This document shows positions 1 to 20,965 of a stretch of 64,000 nt of DNA, piece after piece (the first letter of the stretch is position 1; every line of letters starts with the position of its first letter). Under the pieces are notes generated by a model, which was not told the origin of the DNA, did no database searches, and was given only the letters and a program-made list of their open reading frames with translations. The stretch covers positions 32,001-96,000 of the forward strand of contig JBFWVL010000001.1 in NCBI GenBank assembly GCA_050246755.1. Reading direction: 5' to 3'. Both the position numbers and the translations under genes were made by a program. This DNA is from Bacteriovoracia bacterium. GTDB lineage: Bacteria; Bdellovibrionota; UBA1018; CAIPTA01.

Positions 1-5
1 TATCA

Positions 6-518
6 CTATGGCCGCTTCTTTTTCTTGGAGCATTGAGCAATCTCTAAAACCTCGTCCATGCTCTTTCCTTGAGAATATGCTTCGATTGCAGAAATTCTAC
101 AGCGAATATAAGACGACTCGCCTTTAATACGATCTGGATAAGGCAATATACCGAAAGATCCACTTTCAACGTTGGCCAAGTTTCCCGAAGAGTTCATGAG
201 GAACATTATAAGAAACGAGCCTACATTTTCTATGCTCGAAGGTGCATCCTTTTTATTTCCATTACGCTTGCTATGAAAGTAGGCAAAGCGTTGATTGTTT
301 TTTTCTCCCTTAAAACTTCTAACTACCTCAAACTCTACACGCGTATCTGCTCCATTCCCATTTACAGAAGGTAGCCTTTCTACTTGCTTTACCTTTCCAA
401 CAAAAATATTGTCGGATTTTTCGAGACTATCTTTAAGAGACATAACCGGTACTTCGCCCGTTGTGGCAAAAGCGAGACTGGAAACTATTAATAAAAGGCC
501 TACGCCCACTTTAGTCAC
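6..518 (-). CDS. Secreted TIMP-like OB-fold protein (array copy T5)
   Basis: Signal peptide, then SLKDSLEKSDNIFVGKV motif. Close paralog of 518..1036; GTG start overlaps the upstream stop (TAGTG). Confidence 0.75.
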   Translation of the reverse strand: MTKVGVGLLLIVSSLAFATTGEVPVMSLKDSLEKSDNIFVGKVKQVERLPSVNGNGADTRVEFEVVRSFKGEKNNQRFAYFHSKRNGNKKDAPSSIENVGSFLIMFLMNSSGNLANVESGSFGILPYPDRIKGESSYIRCRISAIEAYSQGKSMDEVLEIAQCSKKKKRP

Positions 519-1036
519 TACGGCCGCTTCTTCTTTTTGTAACAGTAGGAAATCTCTAAAACCTCATCCATGCTTTTTTTCTGTGAATACGCCTCTAATG
601 CCGAGATGGCACATCGCAGAGAGCTACTAAATTCTCCAGCAGCATCAGGGAAAGGTGGAATAAGAGTTGAACCGCTCTCGGTATTTACACGCCCCCCTAA
701 AGATCCATTAGTGAAAATAATAAAGAAAGATCCAACATTCTCAATTGAAACGGGAGCATCCTTTTCATTGCCACTACGGGTACTATAAAAATATACGACC
801 TGTGGGTTTTTCTTTTTTCCCTTGAAGCTTTTAATCACTTCGATCTCGGCGCGCATATCCGAACCATCTGCTTTTAGCGAAGACAATTTCTCGACTTTCT
901 TTACTTTGCCAATAAAGATGTCGTCGGACTTCTCAAGCCTGTCTTTAAGGGGCATCACCGGAATTTCTCCCGTTGTGGCAAGAGCCAAACCAGAGAAAAT
1001 CAATGAAATGCAAAGAAATACCGTTATTCTACCCAT
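518..1036 (-). CDS. Secreted TIMP-like OB-fold protein (array copy T4)
   Basis: Signal peptide, PLKDRLEKSDDIFIGKV motif and C-terminal Cys pair; tandem paralog of 6..518. Confidence 0.75.
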   Translation of the reverse strand: MGRITVFLCISLIFSGLALATTGEIPVMPLKDRLEKSDDIFIGKVKKVEKLSSLKADGSDMRAEIEVIKSFKGKKKNPQVVYFYSTRSGNEKDAPVSIENVGSFFIIFTNGSLGGRVNTESGSTLIPPFPDAAGEFSSSLRCAISALEAYSQKKSMDEVLEISYCYKKKKRP

Positions 1037-1593
1037 ACTGGAATCTCCATAAAGGTTCCTACTTCACGCTGCAACGAAACAAGCTTTTCATTCAGCAACT
1101 GAATTCTATTAATTGTATCCGCGATCAAAGCGTTAAGTCGCTCTATTTCTTCCGGATCAGTCTCTAATTTTAGCTGCCGTTCGTAAGCATTTTTCCTAGC
1201 TTCTTCTTCGTTAATGGCCGCCGTAAACCCACTTGCCGCACGTTTATTCCGAATATACGTGTGAGCACGCCAATTATGTATGCCCGGGCTTAAGCGTATA
1301 GAGTTTGCTCGCCACCGACTACCGGGTGCGTCTTCTAACGTCTTTTGCGACTGACCGTCAAGCTTAAGGGAAACAACGAATTCAAGCTCTTGGTTCTCAG
1401 GAAAATTAATTGCGTGCGCAACGAGTTGCGATCGTTCACCCGTTGCATAAGAATATTTATCCAGAGCGACTTCAATAAAAGCATTTCGCGGATTTGGAAT
1501 TATTTCCATCAAGGCTTGCCGTTTCGCTAAAACAGAATCGATTACTTGAAGCACGGCTTCTCTAGTAAATTCCAGCGGCGTAGTCGGTTGATG
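1024..1593 (-). pseudogene. 5'-truncated paralog (X3) of the 4095..5051 protein
   Basis: Shares DK/NK-x-Y/F-x-x-GER, G-x-H-x-W and ETDP-x-EI with 4095..5051. Similarity (PLEFTREAVL vs PLEYEQEQVL) runs upstream to the IS remnant junction near 1594. Confidence 0.65.
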
Positions 1594-1723
1594 TGGTGCT
1601 CACAATTTACTCTTCGGTGAATCTTTTGCGCTTCATATCTTGCCTTTCTTTTTTTCAAGAAAAGAAGACTTTGTCACGCCGCTTCGAACATTTACTTTGG
1701 TACAGTTTCACCCACCAACGTCA
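1594..1723 (-). mobile_element. Vestigial left end of an IS3-family (IS407-group) element
   Basis: IR TGACGTTGGTGGGTGAAACTGTACCAAA resembles the intact IS end at 3535. It is followed by a broken orfA start, MKRKRFTEE*IVST. Confidence 0.65.
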
Positions 1724-1743
1724 AATGGAGCTAAAAATTTCAT
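1724..1743 (-). pseudogene. First codons (MKFLAP) of a further T paralog (T3), interrupted by the IS remnant
   Basis: ATGAAATTTTTAGCTCCA is identical to the start of 1776..2234 and abuts the IS IR. Confidence 0.6.
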
Positions 1744-1775
1744 TCATTATTCTTAAGTGACCGATAAACTAACGG

Positions 1776-2234
1776 CTATGGCTTAATGCTTTTCAGCTTT
1801 TTAAGTTCTTCCCCGACATCACTAAATTTAATATTCCCACCGCCCATCGCTTGAGAAGTATAATTCCTATTGTTCAATTTTTTTGCATAGAAAAGAATTT
1901 CAGACTTATTCTTTGCTGCTCCTCGCATGCTATTGCCAGTATCGGGATTACAAACATCAAAAGAATCTTTAGGCTTACGATAGAAAACATCAACCATACT
2001 GCCTGACTTGCCTTTGCCTTTTAAAATAATCGTGACTTTTACTTTAACTTTTCTACTAAACTCAGGGGTCTTATCTGTTGTGTCTACATCTTCGGTAGGA
2101 ACGCCCACAAAAATAAAATCGGCGCTTTTAAAGCGCTCTTCAAGAGTGGGCATAGGAAATGTGCAAGTTAATCCAAATGCAGTGTTAGAAAAAACCAGCC
2201 AAATCGCACAAATTAGTGGAGCTAAAAATTTCAT
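1776..2234 (-). CDS. Secreted TIMP-like OB-fold protein (array copy T2)
   Basis: Signal peptide then LTCTFPMPTLEERFKSADFIFVG, the typical bacterial TIMP-like N-terminus; second Cys in DVC. Confidence 0.75.
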   Translation of the reverse strand: MKFLAPLICAIWLVFSNTAFGLTCTFPMPTLEERFKSADFIFVGVPTEDVDTTDKTPEFSRKVKVKVTIILKGKGKSGSMVDVFYRKPKDSFDVCNPDTGNSMRGAAKNKSEILFYAKKLNNRNYTSQAMGGGNIKFSDVGEELKKLKSIKP

Positions 2235-2247
2235 TCGTTGTTCCCTG

Positions 2248-2299
2248 CTAGTTTACGATTAAATCGACATTAATAAGACTACCAACAACAGTGCGATTT
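2248..2299 (-). pseudogene. C-terminal remnant (X2) of another X paralog, truncated by the IS
   Basis: Reads NRTVVGSLINVDLIVN*, compared with GRTLVSVEAINQIFVN* (X1) and QREVGTFMEIPVWVE* (X3). Lies directly upstream of a T gene. Confidence 0.5.
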
Positions 2300-2347
2300 T
2301 GACCGGCTCCCCAAAACTCTACCAAAACCAATGTTAGTTTTCGGGCC

Positions 2348-3190
2348 TCAAACAGCCTTCTTCTGGGATATTTTTTCCAACCACTCCGCCGGCGCAAGAT
2401 TTCCTAGCGAACGATGTGGCCTCCAATTATTGTATTCGATTCTCCAATTTTCGATAACCTCTTTTGCCTCGTCTAAACTTAAAAACGTATTTGCGTTTAA
2501 GCATTCATCCCGAAGCCTTCCGTTAAAGCTGTCGATAAATGCGTTTTCCGTCGGCTTACCAGGTCGGATGAAGTGGATTTTCACGCTATTTTCAAATGCC
2601 CAGCGGTCTAATTCCTTTGAGGCGAACTCCGTTCCGTTATCCACAATCAGCGTCGCGGGCTTCGATCCTAGCTTCGCCAGAGCCGACAACACTTCCGTTA
2701 CTGCGCTCGAAGTCCACCCAGCCCTCGCCTCGAGCCGGGGGCTAACTCTGCTAAAGCTATCTACTATCGTTAAAATCCGAAATTTCTTTCCATCAATTGT
2801 CTGATCATGCACAAAGTCCATGCTCCAGCATTCGTTTGGAGCTGTTGGTTGTTCGGGTTTCACGCGCTTTGCTGCAGAGATTTTCTTGCGGCGCTTAGTC
2901 TTCACGCAGAGGCCTTCTTCTTTATATAGCCTTCGAAGTCTTTTTAAATTCATTTTGATGCCTTGCCTTGCCATCAGCACATGAATTCTCCGATATCCGT
3001 ATCTTGGACGTGCTTCTGCTAAATCTCGTATCTTGATTTTTAGATCCGACTCATCTTTTCTTACCGACCGATAGCGGTGGCCTGAGCGATCTATTTGCGC
3101 GAGCCCGCAGGCGCGCCTTTGGCTCGTATTAAAGGCATGGAGAAGGAATTCAACTATCTTTCTCCTCTTAGCGGGCGTTAGAACTTTTTT
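2348..3190 (-). CDS. IS3 transposase OrfB (DDE), expressed by -1 frameshift
   Basis: WSMDF, IVDSFSR, DNGTEF, PGKPTENAFIDSFNGRLRDECLN and YNxxRPHxSLG motifs. Confidence 0.9.
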   Translation of the reverse strand, partial: KKVLTPAKRRKIVEFLLHAFNTSQRRACGLAQIDRSGHRYRSVRKDESDLKIKIRDLAEARPRYGYRRIHVLMARQGIKMNLKRLRRLYKEEGLCVKTKRRKKISAAKRVKPEQPTAPNECWSMDFVHDQTIDGKKFRILTIVDSFSRVSPRLEARAGWTSSAVTEVLSALAKLGSKPATLIVDNGTEFASKELDRWAFENSVKIHFIRPGKPTENAFIDSFNGRLRDECLNANTFLSLDEAKEVIENWRIEYNNWRPHRSLGNLAPAEWLEKISQKKAV

Positions 3191-3444
3191 CTCAAGACCT
3201 CTTGAAGCATCTGCTTGTCGAGCATTAGATCTGCCACGATCGCTTTTAATTTTCGGTTCTCTTCTTCCACCTGGCGCATGCGCCGAAGCTCGGAAACATC
3301 CATCCCATGAAATTTCTTCTTCCAGCGATGAAAAGTGACTTCCGTAATTCCTAGCTTGCGACAAACCTCTTTGATCGGAGTACCTGACTCCGCTTCGCGA
3401 AGCGTCCGCACGATCTGCTCTTCCGAAAAATTCTTTCTGGGCAT
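3178..3444 (-). CDS. IS3 transposase OrfA (HTH plus leucine zipper)
   Basis: FSEEQIV...VCRKLGI...TFHRWKKKF...EEENRKLK. Confidence 0.92.
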   Translation of the reverse strand: MPRKNFSEEQIVRTLREAESGTPIKEVCRKLGITEVTFHRWKKKFHGMDVSELRRMRQVEEENRKLKAIVADLMLDKQMLQEVLRKKF

Positions 3445-3562
3445 TCATTCCTCCTCCTTTTTTCGTATCAGGAGAAGGCCGCTTGGAGCGCCGCTTCTTA
3501 CATGAATTTTGGCTTAGTTTCTGGGGCTACCGTCAAAATTTGTTATACTCTCATCGGTTTAG

Positions 3563-4105
3563 TTATAGGCGAAGCAAACCGGGAATTGATTCTAGGCAAG
3601 CCCTTTTTTCGCTACTCTTCATTTTTTCGCATTCTTTTTTCCGCTCTTCCGCTTGGCGCTTTCTAACTTCTATAAACCGCCGACCAAGCTCCTCGTCCGT
3701 ACCTGGCGTTTTTGTTACTTCATCAAAAATTTCAATATCTCTTACAGCATCAATAACGGGTAACGGGAAACTTTGTCGGTACGGTTCACTCTTCCCTCTA
3801 ATGGAAAATAAGTAGTCTTTTCCTATCTCTGGAATAAACTTAGGACCTCGATTTCTCACATAAACCGTGAGTTGAATACCCGGCTCACCCCGATAGACTT
3901 TGCCTACCCTTACGGTGACCTTGTGATCCCTCTCATATGCATCAAATTTACTTAAATCTAAAGAATCAACTCGCCCCACAAAAACAAATGTACTCTTTAA
4001 AAAATCTTTCCCTGTTCCAGGAATCTCTTCAGCCTTCGCCCAAATTGGGCTAGAAGAACTCACGATAAGAAATATGAATAGGGAAAAAACCGACTTAGTT
4101 AACAA
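3563..4105 (-). CDS. Secreted TIMP-like OB-fold protein (array copy T1)
   Basis: Signal peptide, FLKSTFVFVGRV motif, GKDYLF and C-terminal Cys pair. Probable TTG start at 4105; the ORF is open to 4150. Confidence 0.65.
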   Translation of the reverse strand: MLTKSVFSLFIFLIVSSSSPIWAKAEEIPGTGKDFLKSTFVFVGRVDSLDLSKFDAYERDHKVTVRVGKVYRGEPGIQLTVYVRNRGPKFIPEIGKDYLFSIRGKSEPYRQSFPLPVIDAVRDIEIFDEVTKTPGTDEELGRRFIEVRKRQAEERKKECEKMKSSEKRACLESIPGLLRL

Positions 4106-5051
4106 AAATTTGATTAATTGCTTCGACGGATACAAGAGTCCTCCCAGCATTCAGTTGAATTTTTAGATCTTGAATTCTATTTAAAAGCATTATGTTCCTA
4201 TCAGTAATTATACCAATTTCTTGAGGATCTGTCTCGCGCTCCAGTCTCTTATTATTTGCCAGCACTTCGCCCTCAGATGCCACTATTCCTTGTTCTATAC
4301 TTTTTGCCCATCTGGAATTTTGCACATAGGCGCGAACTTCCCAAATATGGCTTCCCAGCGAAAGTGGAATACTTTTAGCCCCATAAATCCCAGAACTAAC
4401 CGCTTCAATTTTTAGGGGCGATCCATCAAAGTATGATTCCAAAAAATATTCTTGCTCCGGATTAGTCAAACTAGAAAGTACTCGCGCGCTTAAGTTTACC
4501 CTCTCTCCAACAGAAAAATTTTGCTTATTTGCAGAAAGACCGAATAATTTTTTTCTTTGATTTAGCAAAATTCCGGCAAGAACGGCCTTTATTTCACCGA
4601 GATTAAATTCAGATAAAACTTGTTCTTGCTCGTACTCTAAAGGCTCTATTTTAGAAGTTTGAACTGTATTATTCCGGATATATTTTTTGAGCTCATTTAG
4701 TTGCTTATAAGCAACGTCCCACTGATTCTTATCAAGATTTTGTTTGGCTAAATCAAGATTTGCGAGCATCGTCTCACGTCGCGCAGGTCCATTATTCGTA
4801 AACGCACGCTCAGGAAGATTTTTAATAGCAGTACGAAGAATCCGATAAATTACTGACTCTGAGTAAACTTTTATACCATTTTTAAATATCTGAAACCGTA
4901 CAATGCTTGGATCGTCAATCACCTGAACGGCAAAAGGTATCTCTTCACTACTCGCTAAACGATCCTCAGATAGGAACACAAAATAAACTAATCCGGCAAT
5001 ATCTTTTTTGGAGGCTAAAAGAGATTTAATATTCGTCCGAACTGGCTGCAT
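4095..5051 (-). CDS. Protein X1: helical domain plus Ig/MG2-like domain with a helical hairpin; 5' end apparently decayed
   Basis: 318-aa ORF, paralog of 1024..1593. In-frame upstream sequence FFGIFLAALVA looks like a signal peptide but is cut by a stop beside a T7 run. Confidence 0.6.
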   Translation of the reverse strand: MQPVRTNIKSLLASKKDIAGLVYFVFLSEDRLASSEEIPFAVQVIDDPSIVRFQIFKNGIKVYSESVIYRILRTAIKNLPERAFTNNGPARRETMLANLDLAKQNLDKNQWDVAYKQLNELKKYIRNNTVQTSKIEPLEYEQEQVLSEFNLGEIKAVLAGILLNQRKKLFGLSANKQNFSVGERVNLSARVLSSLTNPEQEYFLESYFDGSPLKIEAVSSGIYGAKSIPLSLGSHIWEVRAYVQNSRWAKSIEQGIVASEGEVLANNKRLERETDPQEIGIITDRNIMLLNRIQDLKIQLNAGRTLVSVEAINQIFVN

Positions 5052-5265
5052 TGCAACTAATGCGGCGAGAAATATACCGAAAAAAATTTACTTTTTTTCC
5101 CGTGAGAAATGATGATTTCTCGCTAGGCAGAGTGGCTGGTGTTTTTTCTAAAGAAACGAAGAAAAGACCGCACGCATTAAACTCGATGCGGCGCAATTTT
5201 TCTTACACGGTGGAAGGCGGCGGTCTCCGGTCTTTTGCTCGCGTTCGAATTTCAGCGAACCGAGT

Positions 5266-5649
5266 CTCAGAAATCCCCAAATCTCCAAAGTTGAGGAGAG
5301 CGACGAAGGATTTGGGGATTTTCGGATTTCTGAGTGGTGCTCACAGAGGGACTCGCCCCACTACAGTCGAGTCTCCTGACTCTCCTTGCGTGGGCTCCCC
5401 TACGTCGCTAAGAAAAGCCTCCTGCTTTTCTTCCCCGCGCTAAATCGCCTTGCGATTCAGCGCAGGTCGCTCCTCCGCGTTCGAGTCCCGAAAATACCAA
5501 GTCTCAAACGAATAGAATTGCCCAAAGTCGAGGCGACGAGAGAGCGCAGCCGTGAGACGGGCTACTGCCCGTCGGAACGGGGCGCGAGCGAAGGCAACGA
5601 TGGATTTGGGCAATTCTATTCGTTTGAGTGGTGCTCACAGAGGGACTCG
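5266..5649 (-). repeat. tRNA-linked tandem repeat units with long hairpins and a duplicated tRNA 3' end
   Basis: 25-bp direct repeat TGAGTGGTGCTCACAGAGGGACTCG at 5331-5355 and 5625-5649. Perfect 24-bp IR at 5503-5526/5605-5628 and a related IR at 5266-5334. Confidence 0.8.
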
Positions 5650-5713
5650 AACCCCCACACCTTGCGGCACTAGCTCCTAAGGCTAGCGTGTCTACCAATT
5701 CCACCATGTGAGC
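5629..5713 (-). tRNA. tRNA-Leu (anticodon TAG)
   Basis: GCTCACA acceptor stem, D-loop TTGGTAGAC, anticodon arm CTAGC-CTTAGGA-GCTAG, long variable arm, GGTTCGAGTCC, encoded CCA. Confidence 0.97.
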
Positions 5714-6743: not shown

Positions 6744-7759
<1,016 letters not shown>

Positions 7760-12322: not shown

Positions 12323-14177
12323 CGCGGGCCGGACGTTTCTGTTCCAGGGTATTAACCGCGATGGCTTGAACCAAGTTCTTAAGCTTTTGCTCCACACGAG
12401 CCACGAACTCCTTCTCGCCTCCGGCCTTCAAGGCTTGCTGGTACACAGCCAAAGCTTTTTTCGGCATATTGAGCGCGGTGTAAACGTCGGCAAGGTGCTC
12501 GCCGATCACGCCCTCATCCATCCGCAGCGCGAAGGCTTTTTCGAGCTGTTTCATGGCCGCCTGAGACTTGCCCTGACGATAGAGCAGCCAGCCATAGCTG
12601 TCGAGCACAAAGGCGTCGCCCGGCTTGAGCGCAACGGCGCGCGAAAGGTAGTCCTCGGCCCGGTTCAGGTCTTTATTTTGTTCGAGCAGGGTATAGCCCA
12701 CGAAGTTAAGGGCATTGGGATTATTCGGATTCTGCCCTAGGAGACGCTCCATCGTGGCCACGCCTTTATCCTTGTCGCCTAGGCGATCGTAGAGGAAGCC
12801 GAGGTAATAAAGGATCGCTTCGTCGTTGGGAAATAGGCGCTCGCCCCGCTCTAAGGCGAATCTGGCTTCGGTAAGCTTCAGCTGGTCTTCATAAACGGCG
12901 GCGAGGGCCGGATAGAACGCCACCAGGTCGGGGCGTTTCTTGATCGCGTTCTGCATGAAATCCACGGCCTGATCATATTGCTTGTTGGCGCGCTGGAGGG
13001 CCACTACGCGGAATACCATCTGGTCGTATTTGGCGTAGTCCGGGCTGATCTGGCTGTAATAATTTAGCGCGGAGGAAATATCGCCGGTCTCGAAGGCCAG
13101 CTCGCCGAGGTAATAGGTAATTTCGTTGGAAGCCGGGAAACGGTCGTGCAGGTCGGAAAGCAATAGGCGGGCTTTGCCGGTCCATTTCAGCTGCCAGTAA
13201 ACCAGCGCAAGGCGCAGTTTTACGTTCTCGTTGGCGGGATCTTCTTCCACAAGGGTCTCGAGGAATACCACTGCCCCCTTGAAATCGGAGGAACCGAGGT
13301 AGATATCGGCCAGACGCTCGGCTAAATCCGCGCTGCGGCCTTCGGCAAACGCCTCTTCCAGCGAGGCTTTTGCCTTGGCGGGATTTTTCATCTCCACGTA
13401 GATGTCCGCGAGGGCGATCGCGGCTTTGGAGAAGGCGGGGCGGTGCTTCAGAGCGGACTCGAAAGCCTGGATCGCGTGGCTGCGCTGCCCGGCTTGGTCG
13501 TATACTTTGGCCAAGTAATAGTAGGCCACGGCACGGTCGATATTGCTTTCGGCGGAATCTTTCAGCTTCACGAGCTTCTCGAGGGCCACTACGCCCTCTT
13601 TTACTTTGCCTACTTCGGCGAGGGTTACCCCGAAATAAAGTAGCGCGTCGCGGTTCTGAGGATCGATCTTCAAAGCCTGGCGATACGTGGCAAGGGCCGC
13701 TTCGTATTCTTTCGCGGCCACCTGAATCCCGGCGAGCAGGAGGTAGCTATCCACGTATTTCGGATCGAGCTTAAGGGCTTCTTCGCAGAGGGTTTTGGCC
13801 TCGGCGAAGCTACCCAGCTTCACGAGTTCTGCAGCTAAACGGGCGCGCACCAAAGCCGACTTGGGGTCATGCACCAGCGTGGCCCGGTAGGCCTCGATCG
13901 AGCGCTGGGGATCGTTATCGAGGGAATAGGCTTGGCCCATGGAAAAATAGAAAACGGCGGCGTCTTCGGGATTCGTGGGCACGGCGAGCGCTCCCGAATC
14001 TTTTTGGCGCCCGAGAGGAGAATCTTCGGGAGAAAGCTGCAGCACGGTGGCTTCTTTTTGGCCTAGTTCCGACTGCAGGCGAACCACTTTTCCCTGGGGA
14101 TGCGTGGTGGCGCAGCCCAGAAGACCGAGAGAAAAGAAGATTGAGAGTAGCAGCCGGAAGCTGAAGAGTCTTTCCAT
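12288..14177 (-). CDS. Tetratricopeptide-repeat lipoprotein
   Basis: Lipobox LLGC and many TPRs, with conserved ALNFVGY and LDSYGW. Confidence 0.9.
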   Translation of the reverse strand: MERLFSFRLLLSIFFSLGLLGCATTHPQGKVVRLQSELGQKEATVLQLSPEDSPLGRQKDSGALAVPTNPEDAAVFYFSMGQAYSLDNDPQRSIEAYRATLVHDPKSALVRARLAAELVKLGSFAEAKTLCEEALKLDPKYVDSYLLLAGIQVAAKEYEAALATYRQALKIDPQNRDALLYFGVTLAEVGKVKEGVVALEKLVKLKDSAESNIDRAVAYYYLAKVYDQAGQRSHAIQAFESALKHRPAFSKAAIALADIYVEMKNPAKAKASLEEAFAEGRSADLAERLADIYLGSSDFKGAVVFLETLVEEDPANENVKLRLALVYWQLKWTGKARLLLSDLHDRFPASNEITYYLGELAFETGDISSALNYYSQISPDYAKYDQMVFRVVALQRANKQYDQAVDFMQNAIKKRPDLVAFYPALAAVYEDQLKLTEARFALERGERLFPNDEAILYYLGFLYDRLGDKDKGVATMERLLGQNPNNPNALNFVGYTLLEQNKDLNRAEDYLSRAVALKPGDAFVLDSYGWLLYRQGKSQAAMKQLEKAFALRMDEGVIGEHLADVYTALNMPKKALAVYQQALKAGGEKEFVARVEQKLKNLVQAIAVNTLEQKRPARGAASLRKPASR

Positions 14178-14607
14178 AGAGACTCTTCGGGACGGTGGGG
14201 GTCCGCCTTAAGGCGAAGGTGCAAAAAAGGTAGACATTTTAGAGAAAAGGCGAAAAAAACGGTCAATAATAACTAACTAAAATGGTCTTTATTGTAGAAT
14301 CCACCCCATTTTTTTCCAATCCTTCCCGAGCAATCTTCTTTTTTTTGCAGAGTCCTATTTCGGCCTTGTCAGCCCACGCTCGCCGCATTATCTAACCTCC
14401 TTCGGACAATTCAAGATGACGCGACCGAATGAAGTTTAACTTGACAGTAATTCGACGCAGTTGGTAGTGGCTAGTACTGCTTAAAACGACTGCTAAACGC
14501 AACGGGAGTTAGCAACTCATAGCGGACCACGACGATAGGCTCCAACGGGCCTCGTCAAAGGGAAGCGTGAAGCAAATTACCGGATGCCAATTGAGGTGGG
14601 GAGATTC

Positions 14608-19528: not shown

Positions 19529-20965
19529 TTAGGTACGGTCGCCTTTATGCTTGAAAGTCCAGCGGATCGGATTGCCGCGGAAACCGTATTTTTCCCGGAC
19601 TACGCGCTTCAGGTAACGACGCAGGGCTTCGGGTACCTTATTCGCATCACGCACGAAGGCGAGAAACTGCGGTGGACGGTTCCCCACTTGGTGCACTTGG
19701 CGGAATTCACCGATGCTATTGCTCCATTTGGGGCCCACATCCAAGGCCTCACTCACGAGCTCCTTTAAATCCTTGGCGTCCACTTTCAGCTCGCGCTGCT
19801 CCACGAGTTCGATGCCGAAACTCCAGAGGCCGTCGATCGTGCGAGGAAGATTCCAGCTAATTTCGGAGTCGGCCGCATCGGTGCCGGCGGCGGCCCCGTA
19901 GAGCTTGCCCTTTTCGGCGGAGATCGCCACGAGCGGAGCGAAATCCAGGAAGGGCCAGTCTTTCTCGATGAGCTCCCGGAATTTTTTTACGCCCTCTTCT
20001 GAATCGGATTTGATTGCGTGGGGCGCCATATCCCACTTGTTCGCGATCACGATCACGGTGCAGCCCGACTCTTCCACGAGCGCGGCGATGCGGGAATCCT
20101 GGCTGGTGATGCCGTCGCTGGCATCGATCATCAGGAAGCAAAGATCGGCCTGATTGAGCACCCGCTGCGCATACATCACGGCGAGGTCTTCCACGTCGTC
20201 TTTGCGCTTGGCTCCGCGGCGGATCCCGGCGGTATCCACCAAAACGATTTTTTTGCCTTCGCGCTCCACCACTACGTCCACGGGATCCGTGGTGGTTCCC
20301 GGCATGGCGCTCGCCACCGAACGCTCTTCGCCCACCAGGTGATTGAGGAAGGTGCTTTTGCCCGCGTTGGGCCGGCCCACGATGCACACGCGGAGCATGC
20401 CTTCGGTGGACTCGGCCGCGGCGTCTTCCTCGGGCAAGAAGCGATTGATCTTCATCCAGAAATCGTGGATGCCCCATTTATGCTCGGCACTCACGGCCAA
20501 CACGTCGTCGGCGCCAAGCTCGTAGAAATCGCCGATCATGTAGGTATTTTTGTCTTCGTCGGATTTATTAGCGGCGATCACAAAGGGCACGCCGAGCTTG
20601 CGGATATAGTTCACGAGGTCGCGATCAAGGTCCGTGAGGCCGATCCGTACGTCCATCACGAGCACGATCACGGCACTTTCTTCGAGCGCCTTCAGCACTT
20701 GTTTCTCGATATTGCCGAGGAGCTCTTGGTCTTCGCGGCCTTTGCGCCAGTTGGCGGGCATCCAGCCGCCGGTATCGCAAATACGCACGTTACGATTATT
20801 GAGAATATCTACGGTCACGTTGCCGAACCGGCGGTCACGAGTAACGCCCTCGAAATCCATTACGATGGCTTGCTTGCGGCCGAGAAGCGCGTTGAAGAGC
20901 GTGCTCTTGCCCACGTTCGGGCGGCCCACCAGCGAGATCATGGTTTTCTTCTTCGTTTCCATCAT
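19529..20965 (-). CDS. der: Ribosome biogenesis GTPase Der (EngA)
   Basis: Tandem G domains (GRPNVGKST and GRPNAGKST), GVTRD, DTAG and a KH-like tail. Confidence 0.95.
   Translation of the reverse strand: MMETKKKTMISLVGRPNVGKSTLFNALLGRKQAIVMDFEGVTRDRRFGNVTVDILNNRNVRICDTGGWMPANWRKGREDQELLGNIEKQVLKALEESAVIVLVMDVRIGLTDLDRDLVNYIRKLGVPFVIAANKSDEDKNTYMIGDFYELGADDVLAVSAEHKWGIHDFWMKINRFLPEEDAAAESTEGMLRVCIVGRPNAGKSTFLNHLVGEERSVASAMPGTTTDPVDVVVEREGKKIVLVDTAGIRRGAKRKDDVEDLAVMYAQRVLNQADLCFLMIDASDGITSQDSRIAALVEESGCTVIVIANKWDMAPHAIKSDSEEGVKKFRELIEKDWPFLDFAPLVAISAEKGKLYGAAAGTDAADSEISWNLPRTIDGLWSFGIELVEQRELKVDAKDLKELVSEALDVGPKWSNSIGEFRQVHQVGNRPPQFLAFVRDANKVPEALRRYLKRVVREKYGFRGNPIRWTFKHKGDRT

Follow-up and report, generated by a model that had tools for sequence, protein, structure and literature searches.

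A tandem array of genes for TIMP-like exported proteins beside truncated X-module genes in a tRNA-Leu island of a Bacteriovoracia bacterium

We analysed a 64,000-nucleotide window of the genome of a Bacteriovoracia bacterium in the phylum Bdellovibrionota (GenBank assembly GCA_050246755.1, contig JBFWVL010000001.1, positions 32,001 to 96,000; G000:C1:32001-96000, G000 being the source genome). At its left end, small genes for exported proteins that resemble tissue inhibitors of metalloproteinases (TIMPs), here called T, stand beside 5'-truncated pieces of larger genes, here called X, and insertion sequences (IS). The minus-strand order is X1-T1-IS3-(X2?)-T2-T3 stub-IS scrap-X3-T4-T5-T6 stub. 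Our preferred reading, to which we give about an even chance, is composite: the array would be the IS-shaped remains of gene pairs, each of an HExxH-bearing protease of the X family and a TIMP-like inhibitor, of which the T genes were kept under purifying selection. We regard the layout, the island, the fold of T, the nature of X, the HExxH of its full-length relatives and purifying selection on T4/T5 as shown; that protease-T units once existed, and that T inhibits any protease, is what we infer. Feature coordinates are window positions unless prefixed, and the array comprises the following (aa, amino acids; ORF, open reading frame).

4095-5051, minus strand: X1, an open frame of 318 aa
3563-4150, minus strand: T1, intact, 195 aa, predicted exported TIMP/NTR-like protein, the most divergent copy
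2299-3536, minus strand: IS3-family element, with transposase at 2348-3448, orfA at 3178-3444 and orfB carrying rve, rve_3 and HTH_21 (Pfam)
2251-2330, minus strand: candidate X2 remnant, ending in …GAGQNRTVVGSLINVDLIVN and a stop; about 20 residues resemble the X1 C-terminus by eye, and it ends 16 nt before the T2 start
1776-2234, minus strand: T2, intact, 152 aa, predicted exported TIMP/NTR-like protein of the Cys-bearing subtype
1726-1752, minus strand: T3 stub, a 27-nt copy (93%) of the T2 ribosome-site/start region, with seven codons (MKFLAPF) and a stop
1600-1720, minus strand: probable scrap of an IS3-family end, whose short ORF (MKRKRFTEE and a stop) resembles the orfA start MPRKNFSEE, as read by eye only
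1024-1554 (ORF, 176 aa; open frame 1027-1599), minus strand: X3, a 5'-truncated fragment
518-1036, minus strand: T4, intact, 172 aa, predicted exported TIMP/NTR-like protein, the modelled copy
6-518, minus strand: T5, intact, 170 aa, predicted exported TIMP/NTR-like protein
starting at 1-6 and running off the left window edge, minus strand: T6 stub, whose GTG overlaps the T5 stop (TAGTG); 16 codons, MIKMRAVLLGLLLFSS, and a stop

The T family and the structure of the array

An initial annotation of this DNA, made from the sequence, had proposed this order and four intact T genes whose upstream partners are broken. ORFs and paralogy bear out the layout, the intactness of T1, T2, T4 and T5 and the damage upstream of them; the X2 remnant is not demonstrable, with some 20 residues matched by eye and no significant match of the X profile at 2251-2330. 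Each of the four T proteins carries a form of one motif (SDDIFIGKV, SDNIFVGKV, ADFIFVGVP and STFVFVGRV) and a signal peptide; signal peptides and cleavage sites of T were judged from the sequence by eye, with no predictor score. T4 and T5 share 63% identity (E 1e-71), T1 and T2 are weak relatives of these two (E 5e-5 to 2e-2) and of each other, and a profile built from T genes joins all four with seven genes of contig C14 in the sister genome G004. An exhaustive HMMER search of 1.84 billion proteins with an 11-sequence profile placed 858 representatives in the family at E≤1e-3, of which 47 reached E≤1e-10 and 10 reached E≤1e-30; in a word-based search of 5.8 billion proteins, T4 matched itself alone.

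According to a structural model and the searches made with it, the T proteins very probably have an oligonucleotide/oligosaccharide-binding (OB) fold of the TIMP/NTR type, a five-stranded barrel with flanking helices. Pfam and NCBIfam gave nothing above cut-offs for T1, T2, T4 and T5, with no TIMP, NtA or NTR match at E≤1. Among 72 T relatives scanned with Pfam, 14 had weak matches (nine to NtA and five to TIMP) and one of the 72, P0100, exceeded the TIMP cut-off. A profile of 89 T sequences searched against the PDB found agrin NtA (E 0.027), and a language-model atlas, whose placements we use as leads only, pointed in that direction too. The same 89-sequence alignment served as input for an AlphaFold2 model of T4 (predicted local distance difference test (pLDDT) score 89.9, predicted template-modelling score (pTM) 0.81), the sole T modelled, to which T1, T2 and T5 are tied via the profile.

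Foldseek returned TIMP-2 as the best match to the T4 model (E 2e-5), and all 15 rows listed for ranks 1-16 were TIMP-1, TIMP-2, PCOLCE NTR or agrin NtA (E 2e-5 to 1.4e-3, template-modelling (TM) score 0.40-0.65). VIA-align, a fold search independent of Foldseek, ranked N-TIMP-3 first (Z 10.8, 115 of 121 residues aligned, root-mean-square deviation 3.1); its ranks 1-12 were all NTR-fold chains (Z 10.8 to 7.1), with generic OB folds at Z 6.9 or lower. A confident model and two concordant fold searches argue that T is an exported NTR/TIMP-fold protein, in agreement with the TIMP-like OB fold that had been predicted for it.

TIMPs form MEROPS family I35, and the amino and carbonyl groups of their mature Cys1, part of a C-x-C, bind the catalytic zinc of the protease; the disulfides Cys1-Cys70 and Cys3-Cys99 tie the N-terminal segment to loops of the barrel. 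At the cleavage sites chosen by eye (marked by a slash), the mature N-termini of T4 (ALA/TTGEIP), T5 (AFA/TTGEVP) and T1 (IWA/KAEEIP) contain no Cys. T4 and T5 have two Cys each, both within C-terminal helices, and T1 has two in its long, helical C-terminal tail. T2 has a single N-terminal Cys (AFG LTC TFPMP) and a second one mid-chain in DVCNPD; the choice of cleavage site decides whether the first of these stands at the mature end. Two subtypes can be told apart on this basis. One has a Cys at or near the mature N-terminus and another mid-chain, and includes T2, several G004 copies and the nearest outside relatives; in T2 and those G004 copies the two could form one TIMP-type bond. The Cys-less subtype consists of T1, T4, T5 and a few others, P0011, P0012, P0023 and P0027 among them, several with a C-terminal helical extension. 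More distant relatives within the phylum show A/C-x-C after the signal peptide, as in TIMPs, in five of the nine loci listed.

Differences between T4 and T5 fall at a proportion of 0.25 of nonsynonymous sites (pN) against a saturated 0.79 of synonymous sites (pS), which indicates long divergence under purifying selection. That the T genes are both intact and constrained suggests that T is still useful.

The junctions support an inherited arrangement. X stops had been reported to overlap or adjoin T starts, and the overlap is 56 nt at X1/T1 and 13 nt at X3/T4, while the sequence TAGTG is shared between stop and start at T4/T5 and again at T5/T6. Such overlaps and TAGTG coupling fit inherited operon structure better than chance juxtaposition. 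The T3 stub that had been proposed is real, a copy of the T2 start (27 nt, 93%; repeat pair at L004 15726-15752 and 16217-16243). The GTG noticed over the T5 stop at the window edge opens the T6 stub, which is signal-peptide-like and ends after 16 codons with no further frame; just beyond it lies an IS3-family ORF on the plus strand (L004 13095-13940), and our reading is that an IS3 element left of the window cut T6. The IS3-family element at 2299-3536 has no second copy in the genome, and its ends could be set because a contig of a separate sequencing run, described below, carries 2299-3536 in the opposite orientation. The DNA left of the window (L004 10691-13940, equal to G000:C1:28691-31940) encodes two more exported proteins of unknown family (172 and 276 aa) and an IS3-family transposase remnant (minus strand), in addition to the plus-strand IS3-family ORF that abuts the T6 stub.

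Truncated X genes, their full-length relatives and the recurrence of the pairing

X1 and X3 are, as had been claimed for three X copies, diverged paralogs damaged at the 5' end; for X2 the claim is not demonstrable. They share 31% identity over 151 aa (E 1e-15; X1 residues 137-300 match 1578-1081), and they align to only the last ~300 (X1) and ~170 (X3) residues of proteins of 1148-1255 aa. In six-frame searches of 61 related genomes, X1 corresponded to the C-terminal end of 1149-1256-aa open frames in G000 itself and in G007, its closest relatives lying in G007-like genomes of 35-37% guanine-plus-cytosine (GC) content at 26-29% identity. Homology of X1 begins at about residue 35, downstream of the HExxH of those proteins, and X1 has neither HExxH nor a signal peptide. 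X3 consists of a module of ~160 residues, the X module, with ~26 residues upstream (X profile E 2e-52, model positions 1-158), and has no signal peptide and no catalytic part.

A model of X1 shows a helical bundle at about residues 50-166 and, at residues 170-318 (pLDDT >94), an Ig/FN3-like sandwich with a two-helix hairpin and a closing strand. Compared with PDB folds, it returned generic Ig/FN3 domains, helical bundles and the GlgE N+S domains (TM 0.25), with no specific relative and no toxin or enzyme fold. Sequence-level searches of the X module against the PDB yielded coiled-coil noise only, and Pfam and NCBIfam gave nothing above cut-offs. Word-based searching matched X1 to itself alone among 5.8 billion proteins and to nothing among longer proteins, the latter being weak evidence. 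We therefore regard X1 and X3 as non-catalytic tail pieces; in all likelihood, they are the 3' ends of wrecked X-family genes.

The full-length proteins of which they are tails include the kind of enzyme that the initial annotation had expected to be linked to T. Four of five full-length X relatives (1148-1299 aa) have an aligned, conserved HExxH and a further invariant His; the fifth has a Peptidase_C39-like domain in its place. Within the atlas, the HExxH region lies nearest to Peptidase_M66/Reprolysin_3 clusters (score 0.94, 175-181 shared features), which we again take as a lead.

Profile iteration over the fetched loci found the X module in 15 ORFs. It is C-terminal in the five proteins of 1148-1299 aa and in two malectin proteins, N-terminal in four PKD/TIG proteins and free-standing in two; the remaining two ORFs are X1 and X3. 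In G339, a complete genome from another family of the phylum, it heads two RCC1-propeller proteins and two others in one cluster. A survey of 401 phylum genomes with the X and T profiles found it in 24, usually as 3-9 copies in adjacent genes.

Clusters of three to five adjacent X-module genes occur at C1:149017-156872 and C1:823536-831663, and also in G007 and G339 (L081 1421-10526). Each cluster gene encodes a secreted protein with one module of ~160 aa (Ig-like sandwich plus helical hairpin, with an 'ETDP' turn) that matches no Pfam family, and the passengers of the module are malectin, PKD/TIG, an RCC1 propeller, the HExxH region or a C39-like peptidase. The module may be a docking or oligomerisation device for a multi-protein surface complex. 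The resident HExxH-X gene (C1:149017-152463) has 42.8% GC against 52-58% for the other genes of its operon; a mosaic make-up is possible for this operon as well. Compared with the array, the X module and the multi-gene clusters that carry it, which lie mostly outside the window, may prove the more original find.

In another reading, T would bind the X module itself as a cap, chaperone or regulator of the Ig-hairpin module, controlling assembly of the X complex rather than protease activity. The piece kept beside each T is exactly the X module, with no catalytic part, and three to four neighbouring genes per resident cluster each carry one module, which suggests a role in assembly. However, the resident X clusters of G000, G007 and G339 have no T gene, and retention of the 3' end is simply what 5' truncation leaves; we consider direct binding of the module quite improbable.

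X and T are not a conserved pair. T was found in nine of the 401 genomes, X in 24 and both in only three (G000, G004 and G007), which belong to one family, so the three co-occurrences are not independent. In G007 the single T match is weak and lies on a contig other than those with X clusters; adjacency of X and T was seen in this island only. The expectation that the pair would be conserved in other genomes was thus not borne out. The seven T genes of G004:C14 lie in a low-GC region of ~20 kb (40-45% GC over most of L030), which also holds one X scrap, a 66-residue C-terminal piece that follows a T gene and abuts a 168-aa gene that is not T. Around them, G004:C14:28001-52800 contains four or more further families of duplicated genes for small exported or membrane proteins (L030 3503-3952 / 7019-7447; L030 9615-10271 / 13067-13792; L030 10524-11039 / 13770-14486; L030 15410-15862 / L031 3903-4358) and a protein with an HEAAHH motif (L030 16573-17820). 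Related-locus searches with T2 in genome contigs and with P0013 in metagenome contigs found nothing.

These results bear on the interpretation first given to the locus, that of a polymorphic effector/immunity system in which the C-terminal regions of X would be the diversified ends of effectors and each would have its cognate T as immunity protein. In its support, 5'-truncated pieces with intact, overlapping small genes in tandem resemble orphan modules of toxin C-terminus and immunity gene, and the genes downstream of full-length X proteins differ between clusters. Against it, the retained part of X is a conserved structural module, an Ig/FN3-like sandwich and hairpin with no toxin or enzyme fold, which occurs in varied secreted proteins at the N-terminus (PKD and RCC1 proteins), at the C-terminus (malectin proteins) or alone; its position varies among proteins, and there is therefore no variable C-terminal warhead. 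Moreover, no full-length X gene heads the array, and T is widespread mostly without X, as the survey counts show. We therefore abandon the view of X as an effector or toxin and hold a polymorphic toxin/immunity locus to be very improbable.

A tRNA-Leu island with a duplicated upstream region

The array lies in DNA of foreign composition. Positions 1-5250 have 36-49% GC against 55-63% to the right, the island genes have 37-44% against a genome mean of 54.6%, and the low-GC stretch extends ~3.5 kb left of the window to about C1:28500. The tRNA anchoring that had been proposed is confirmed by this contrast and by the features at the right border, which are listed here with a third one discussed below.

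5629-5713, minus strand: tRNA-Leu (anticodon tag), the island anchor, found by Rfam
5331-5365, minus strand: partial direct repeat of the tRNA-Leu 3' end, 35 nt at 89%, resembling an attachment-site duplicate
4968-5219, minus strand: copy of the upstream region of the resident X operon, 252 bp, 96.4% identical to C1:156921-157172

The tRNA was the sole match of the Rfam scan. In G004 the same tRNA-Leu/ABC-ATPase locus has normal GC and lacks the low-GC island, with ~2.8 kb between the tRNA-Leu and a gene whose G000 ortholog is 21.5 kb off. The island thus combines deviant composition with a border tRNA, a partial repeat of that tRNA and genes of mobile elements, and a close relative lacks it; no integrase gene was seen within the 20 kb examined. 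We conclude with high confidence that window positions 1-5300, with the ~3.5 kb to their left, are a horizontally acquired low-GC island at tRNA-Leu.

Near-identical DNA of the X1-T1 region is present in sequencing runs of two studies, and the recovery of the same DNA from independent runs means that the layout is no assembly artefact. In a run of the second study (sequencing run X2), a 29.9-kb contig carries 2299-3536 inverted, with 139 unmatched letters at the junction, and positions 1-1770 are covered by no contig. Another contig of that run joins 5354 to 5629, so that the 274 bp between the tRNA-end repeats are gone. The inverted element and the 274-bp loss show a locus that is still rearranging and is polymorphic between populations.

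The spacer between the tRNA-Leu and the partial repeat (5357-5631) is 76% similar to C1:1556334-1556607 and holds a perfect 24-nt inverted repeat (L004 19503-19526 / 19605-19628). A scan for consensus promoter and terminator patterns remained at chance level. Nothing in two metatranscriptome runs, from the study of one of the DNA matches, matched the island, and these runs are uninformative on expression.

Compared as sequences, X1-T1 is preceded by a second copy of DNA that lies upstream of the resident X operon. The counterpart of the 252-bp copy, C1:156921-157172, is the middle of the intergenic region before the malectin-X gene, the first of the resident four-gene X cluster, and the copy is the sole DNA-level similarity of the island to the rest of the genome. 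X1 takes its first 28 codons from this copy, to which the 168 bp before them belong as well; the resident locus has a stop in the frame that corresponds to these 28 codons. Assembly branch points in two runs, at 4968 and at 5218/5219, are as expected of a two-copy repeat. The duplicated region hints at co-regulation of X1-T1 with the resident operon. Cassette swapping with the resident operon by homologous recombination was also considered and was rejected as the main model, since beyond the 252-bp copy the island shares no DNA with the resident clusters.

A more far-reaching scenario, improbable in our estimate, joins the duplicate to the proposed docking role. The X module would dock a malectin lectin, a PKD/TIG adhesin, an X protein without passenger and an M66- or C39-like protease into one surface machine of these Bdellovibrionota-like bacteria, and the protease of the machine would be restrained by T, a diversifying family of Cys-less TIMP-fold proteins. 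The island would store alternative cassettes of an X tail with an inhibitor, and X1-T1 would already be wired to the resident control region so that the inhibitor is made with the protease.

Weighing the inhibitor model and comparison with known systems

In the composite reading that we prefer, a low-GC donor would have brought in repeated units, each of a large HExxH-X gene and one or more translationally coupled T genes. IS3 insertions, deletions and one recombination event that involved the promoter region before the resident X operon would then have stripped away the protease parts, leaving T1, T2, T4 and T5 as a working tandem family under purifying selection. The likeliest role of the T proteins would be to bind zinc metalloproteases that have been secreted, whether these act in the periplasm or outside the cell, and to block them, the candidate targets being the cell's own X-family protease or the proteases of competitors. 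Inhibition as such, suggested by the fold, by the HExxH class of the partner and by analogy with a Listeria precedent (below), we hold as a possible and still somewhat doubtful function.

Several observations weigh against this reading. T1, T4 and T5 have neither the N-terminal Cys nor the disulfides of TIMPs, T2 has at most one Cys pair, and the fold matches include NTR binders that are not inhibitors, namely agrin NtA, complement C345C and PCOLCE. The assignment of the HExxH proteins to the proteases is itself weak, with Reprolysin_5 at E 0.16 as the only Pfam match and no PDB match by sequence or profile. An intact HExxH-X gene with a T gene behind it turned up in none of the 61 related genomes, in none of the 401 phylum genomes and not in the word-based search of longer proteins, the last of these three negatives being weak evidence. 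The genes that follow intact HExxH-X genes in G000 and G007 encode exported or membrane proteins unrelated to T and to each other. The seven profile-confirmed T genes of G004:C14 are set amid other families of small secreted proteins, and the one X scrap there has no T gene after it. No protease or X gene lies near the outside T relative P0016, on one contig of 5.5 kb, or within about 1.5 kb of T at nine distant loci of the phylum.

Much of the same evidence favours another explanation, unlikely in our view yet a serious one, in which T and X are unrelated neighbours. T proteins would be small exported NTR-fold binders, for example of a glycan or a surface protein, that came to lie beside X wrecks by IS rearrangement with no functional link. 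The T array of G004:C14, which mixes at least four other paralogous small secreted families and contains almost no X, agrees with this, as do the varied neighbours of T relatives elsewhere, the missing reactive Cys of T1, T4 and T5, and the non-inhibitory NTR matches. It accounts less well for the 3' end of X overlapping the T start twice (X1-T1 and X3-T4), as expected of an inherited operon junction, for the HExxH of the X parent class, a type of enzyme on which TIMP-fold inhibitors act, and for the X scrap embedded in the G004 array too.

Whichever of these holds, the locus offers a series of diverged T copies that includes a subtype without the Cys that binds the zinc site, and the HExxH proteins with an X module are a concrete candidate target class for T. 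If T inhibits those proteases, the array would reveal the means by which bacteria of predatory type keep the proteases that they secrete in check, and would show that the TIMP mechanism can operate without Cys1. If T does not inhibit them, the array would be one more collection of genes for small secreted proteins within an island in decay.

Among known families, T is closest to animal TIMPs and the NTR module (PF00965 TIMP, PF03146 NtA and PF01759 NTR). Shared with these are the predicted OB-type fold, in which an N-terminal segment precedes an xDxIFxG strand and helices lie at the C-terminus, export by a signal peptide, the C-x-C that distant bacterial T relatives expose, and weak but repeated profile links. 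T1-T5, in contrast, have no Pfam TIMP, NtA or NTR match at E≤1 and are single-domain proteins without the TIMP C-terminal domain; T1, T4 and T5 depart further in their Cys, whereas T2 keeps one at the N-terminus and one mid-chain.

Orphan toxin-CT/immunity arrays (CT, C-terminal region) of contact-dependent inhibition (CDI) and Rhs systems contain tandem 5'-truncated fragments, each overlapped or directly followed by a small gene that is intact. The island resembles them in its tandem 5'-truncated X fragments and intact small T genes. It differs in having no full-length head gene, in that the fragment is a conserved module and the small genes are of one fold family, and in that the 20 kb examined showed no genes of a secretion system.

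TIMP-fold proteins are numerous in bacteria, this subfamily alone having 858 representatives. Across the literature searched, the only experimental characterisation of a bacterial TIMP-fold protein that we found is a study of mtz-tim in Listeria monocytogenes, and a search that joined Bdellovibrio, malectin, PKD and metalloprotease found nothing. There, in a phage-remnant locus, the gene for a secreted metzincin is followed by one for a TIMP-like lipoprotein (Boichis et al. 2021, PMC8235301). That study describes a metzincin gene directly before the TIMP-like gene in Listeria and other Gram-positives, and Tim as a substrate that is released by Mtz, with no inhibition demonstrated (PMC8235301). 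The pair would be matched by the former layout that we propose here, a zinc-protease gene placed directly before a TIMP-fold gene that has no promoter of its own; mobile or foreign DNA as location and a fold that is seen by structure and not by sequence are shared. In our island, T genes begin within the 3' ends of genes that have HExxH in their full-length relatives and that lack the catalytic parts here. Unlike in mtz-tim, the protease parts have been deleted, leaving non-catalytic tails, and T is multi-copy and tandem. T also appears to be exported by the Sec pathway and signal peptidase I rather than as a lipoprotein, and the presumed protease would be a multidomain protein of 1150-1250 aa with an X module instead of a small metzincin. 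This is not a new class of system; the novelty lies in the tandem arrangement, in the subtype without Cys and in the physical linkage of T genes to the tails of HExxH proteins.

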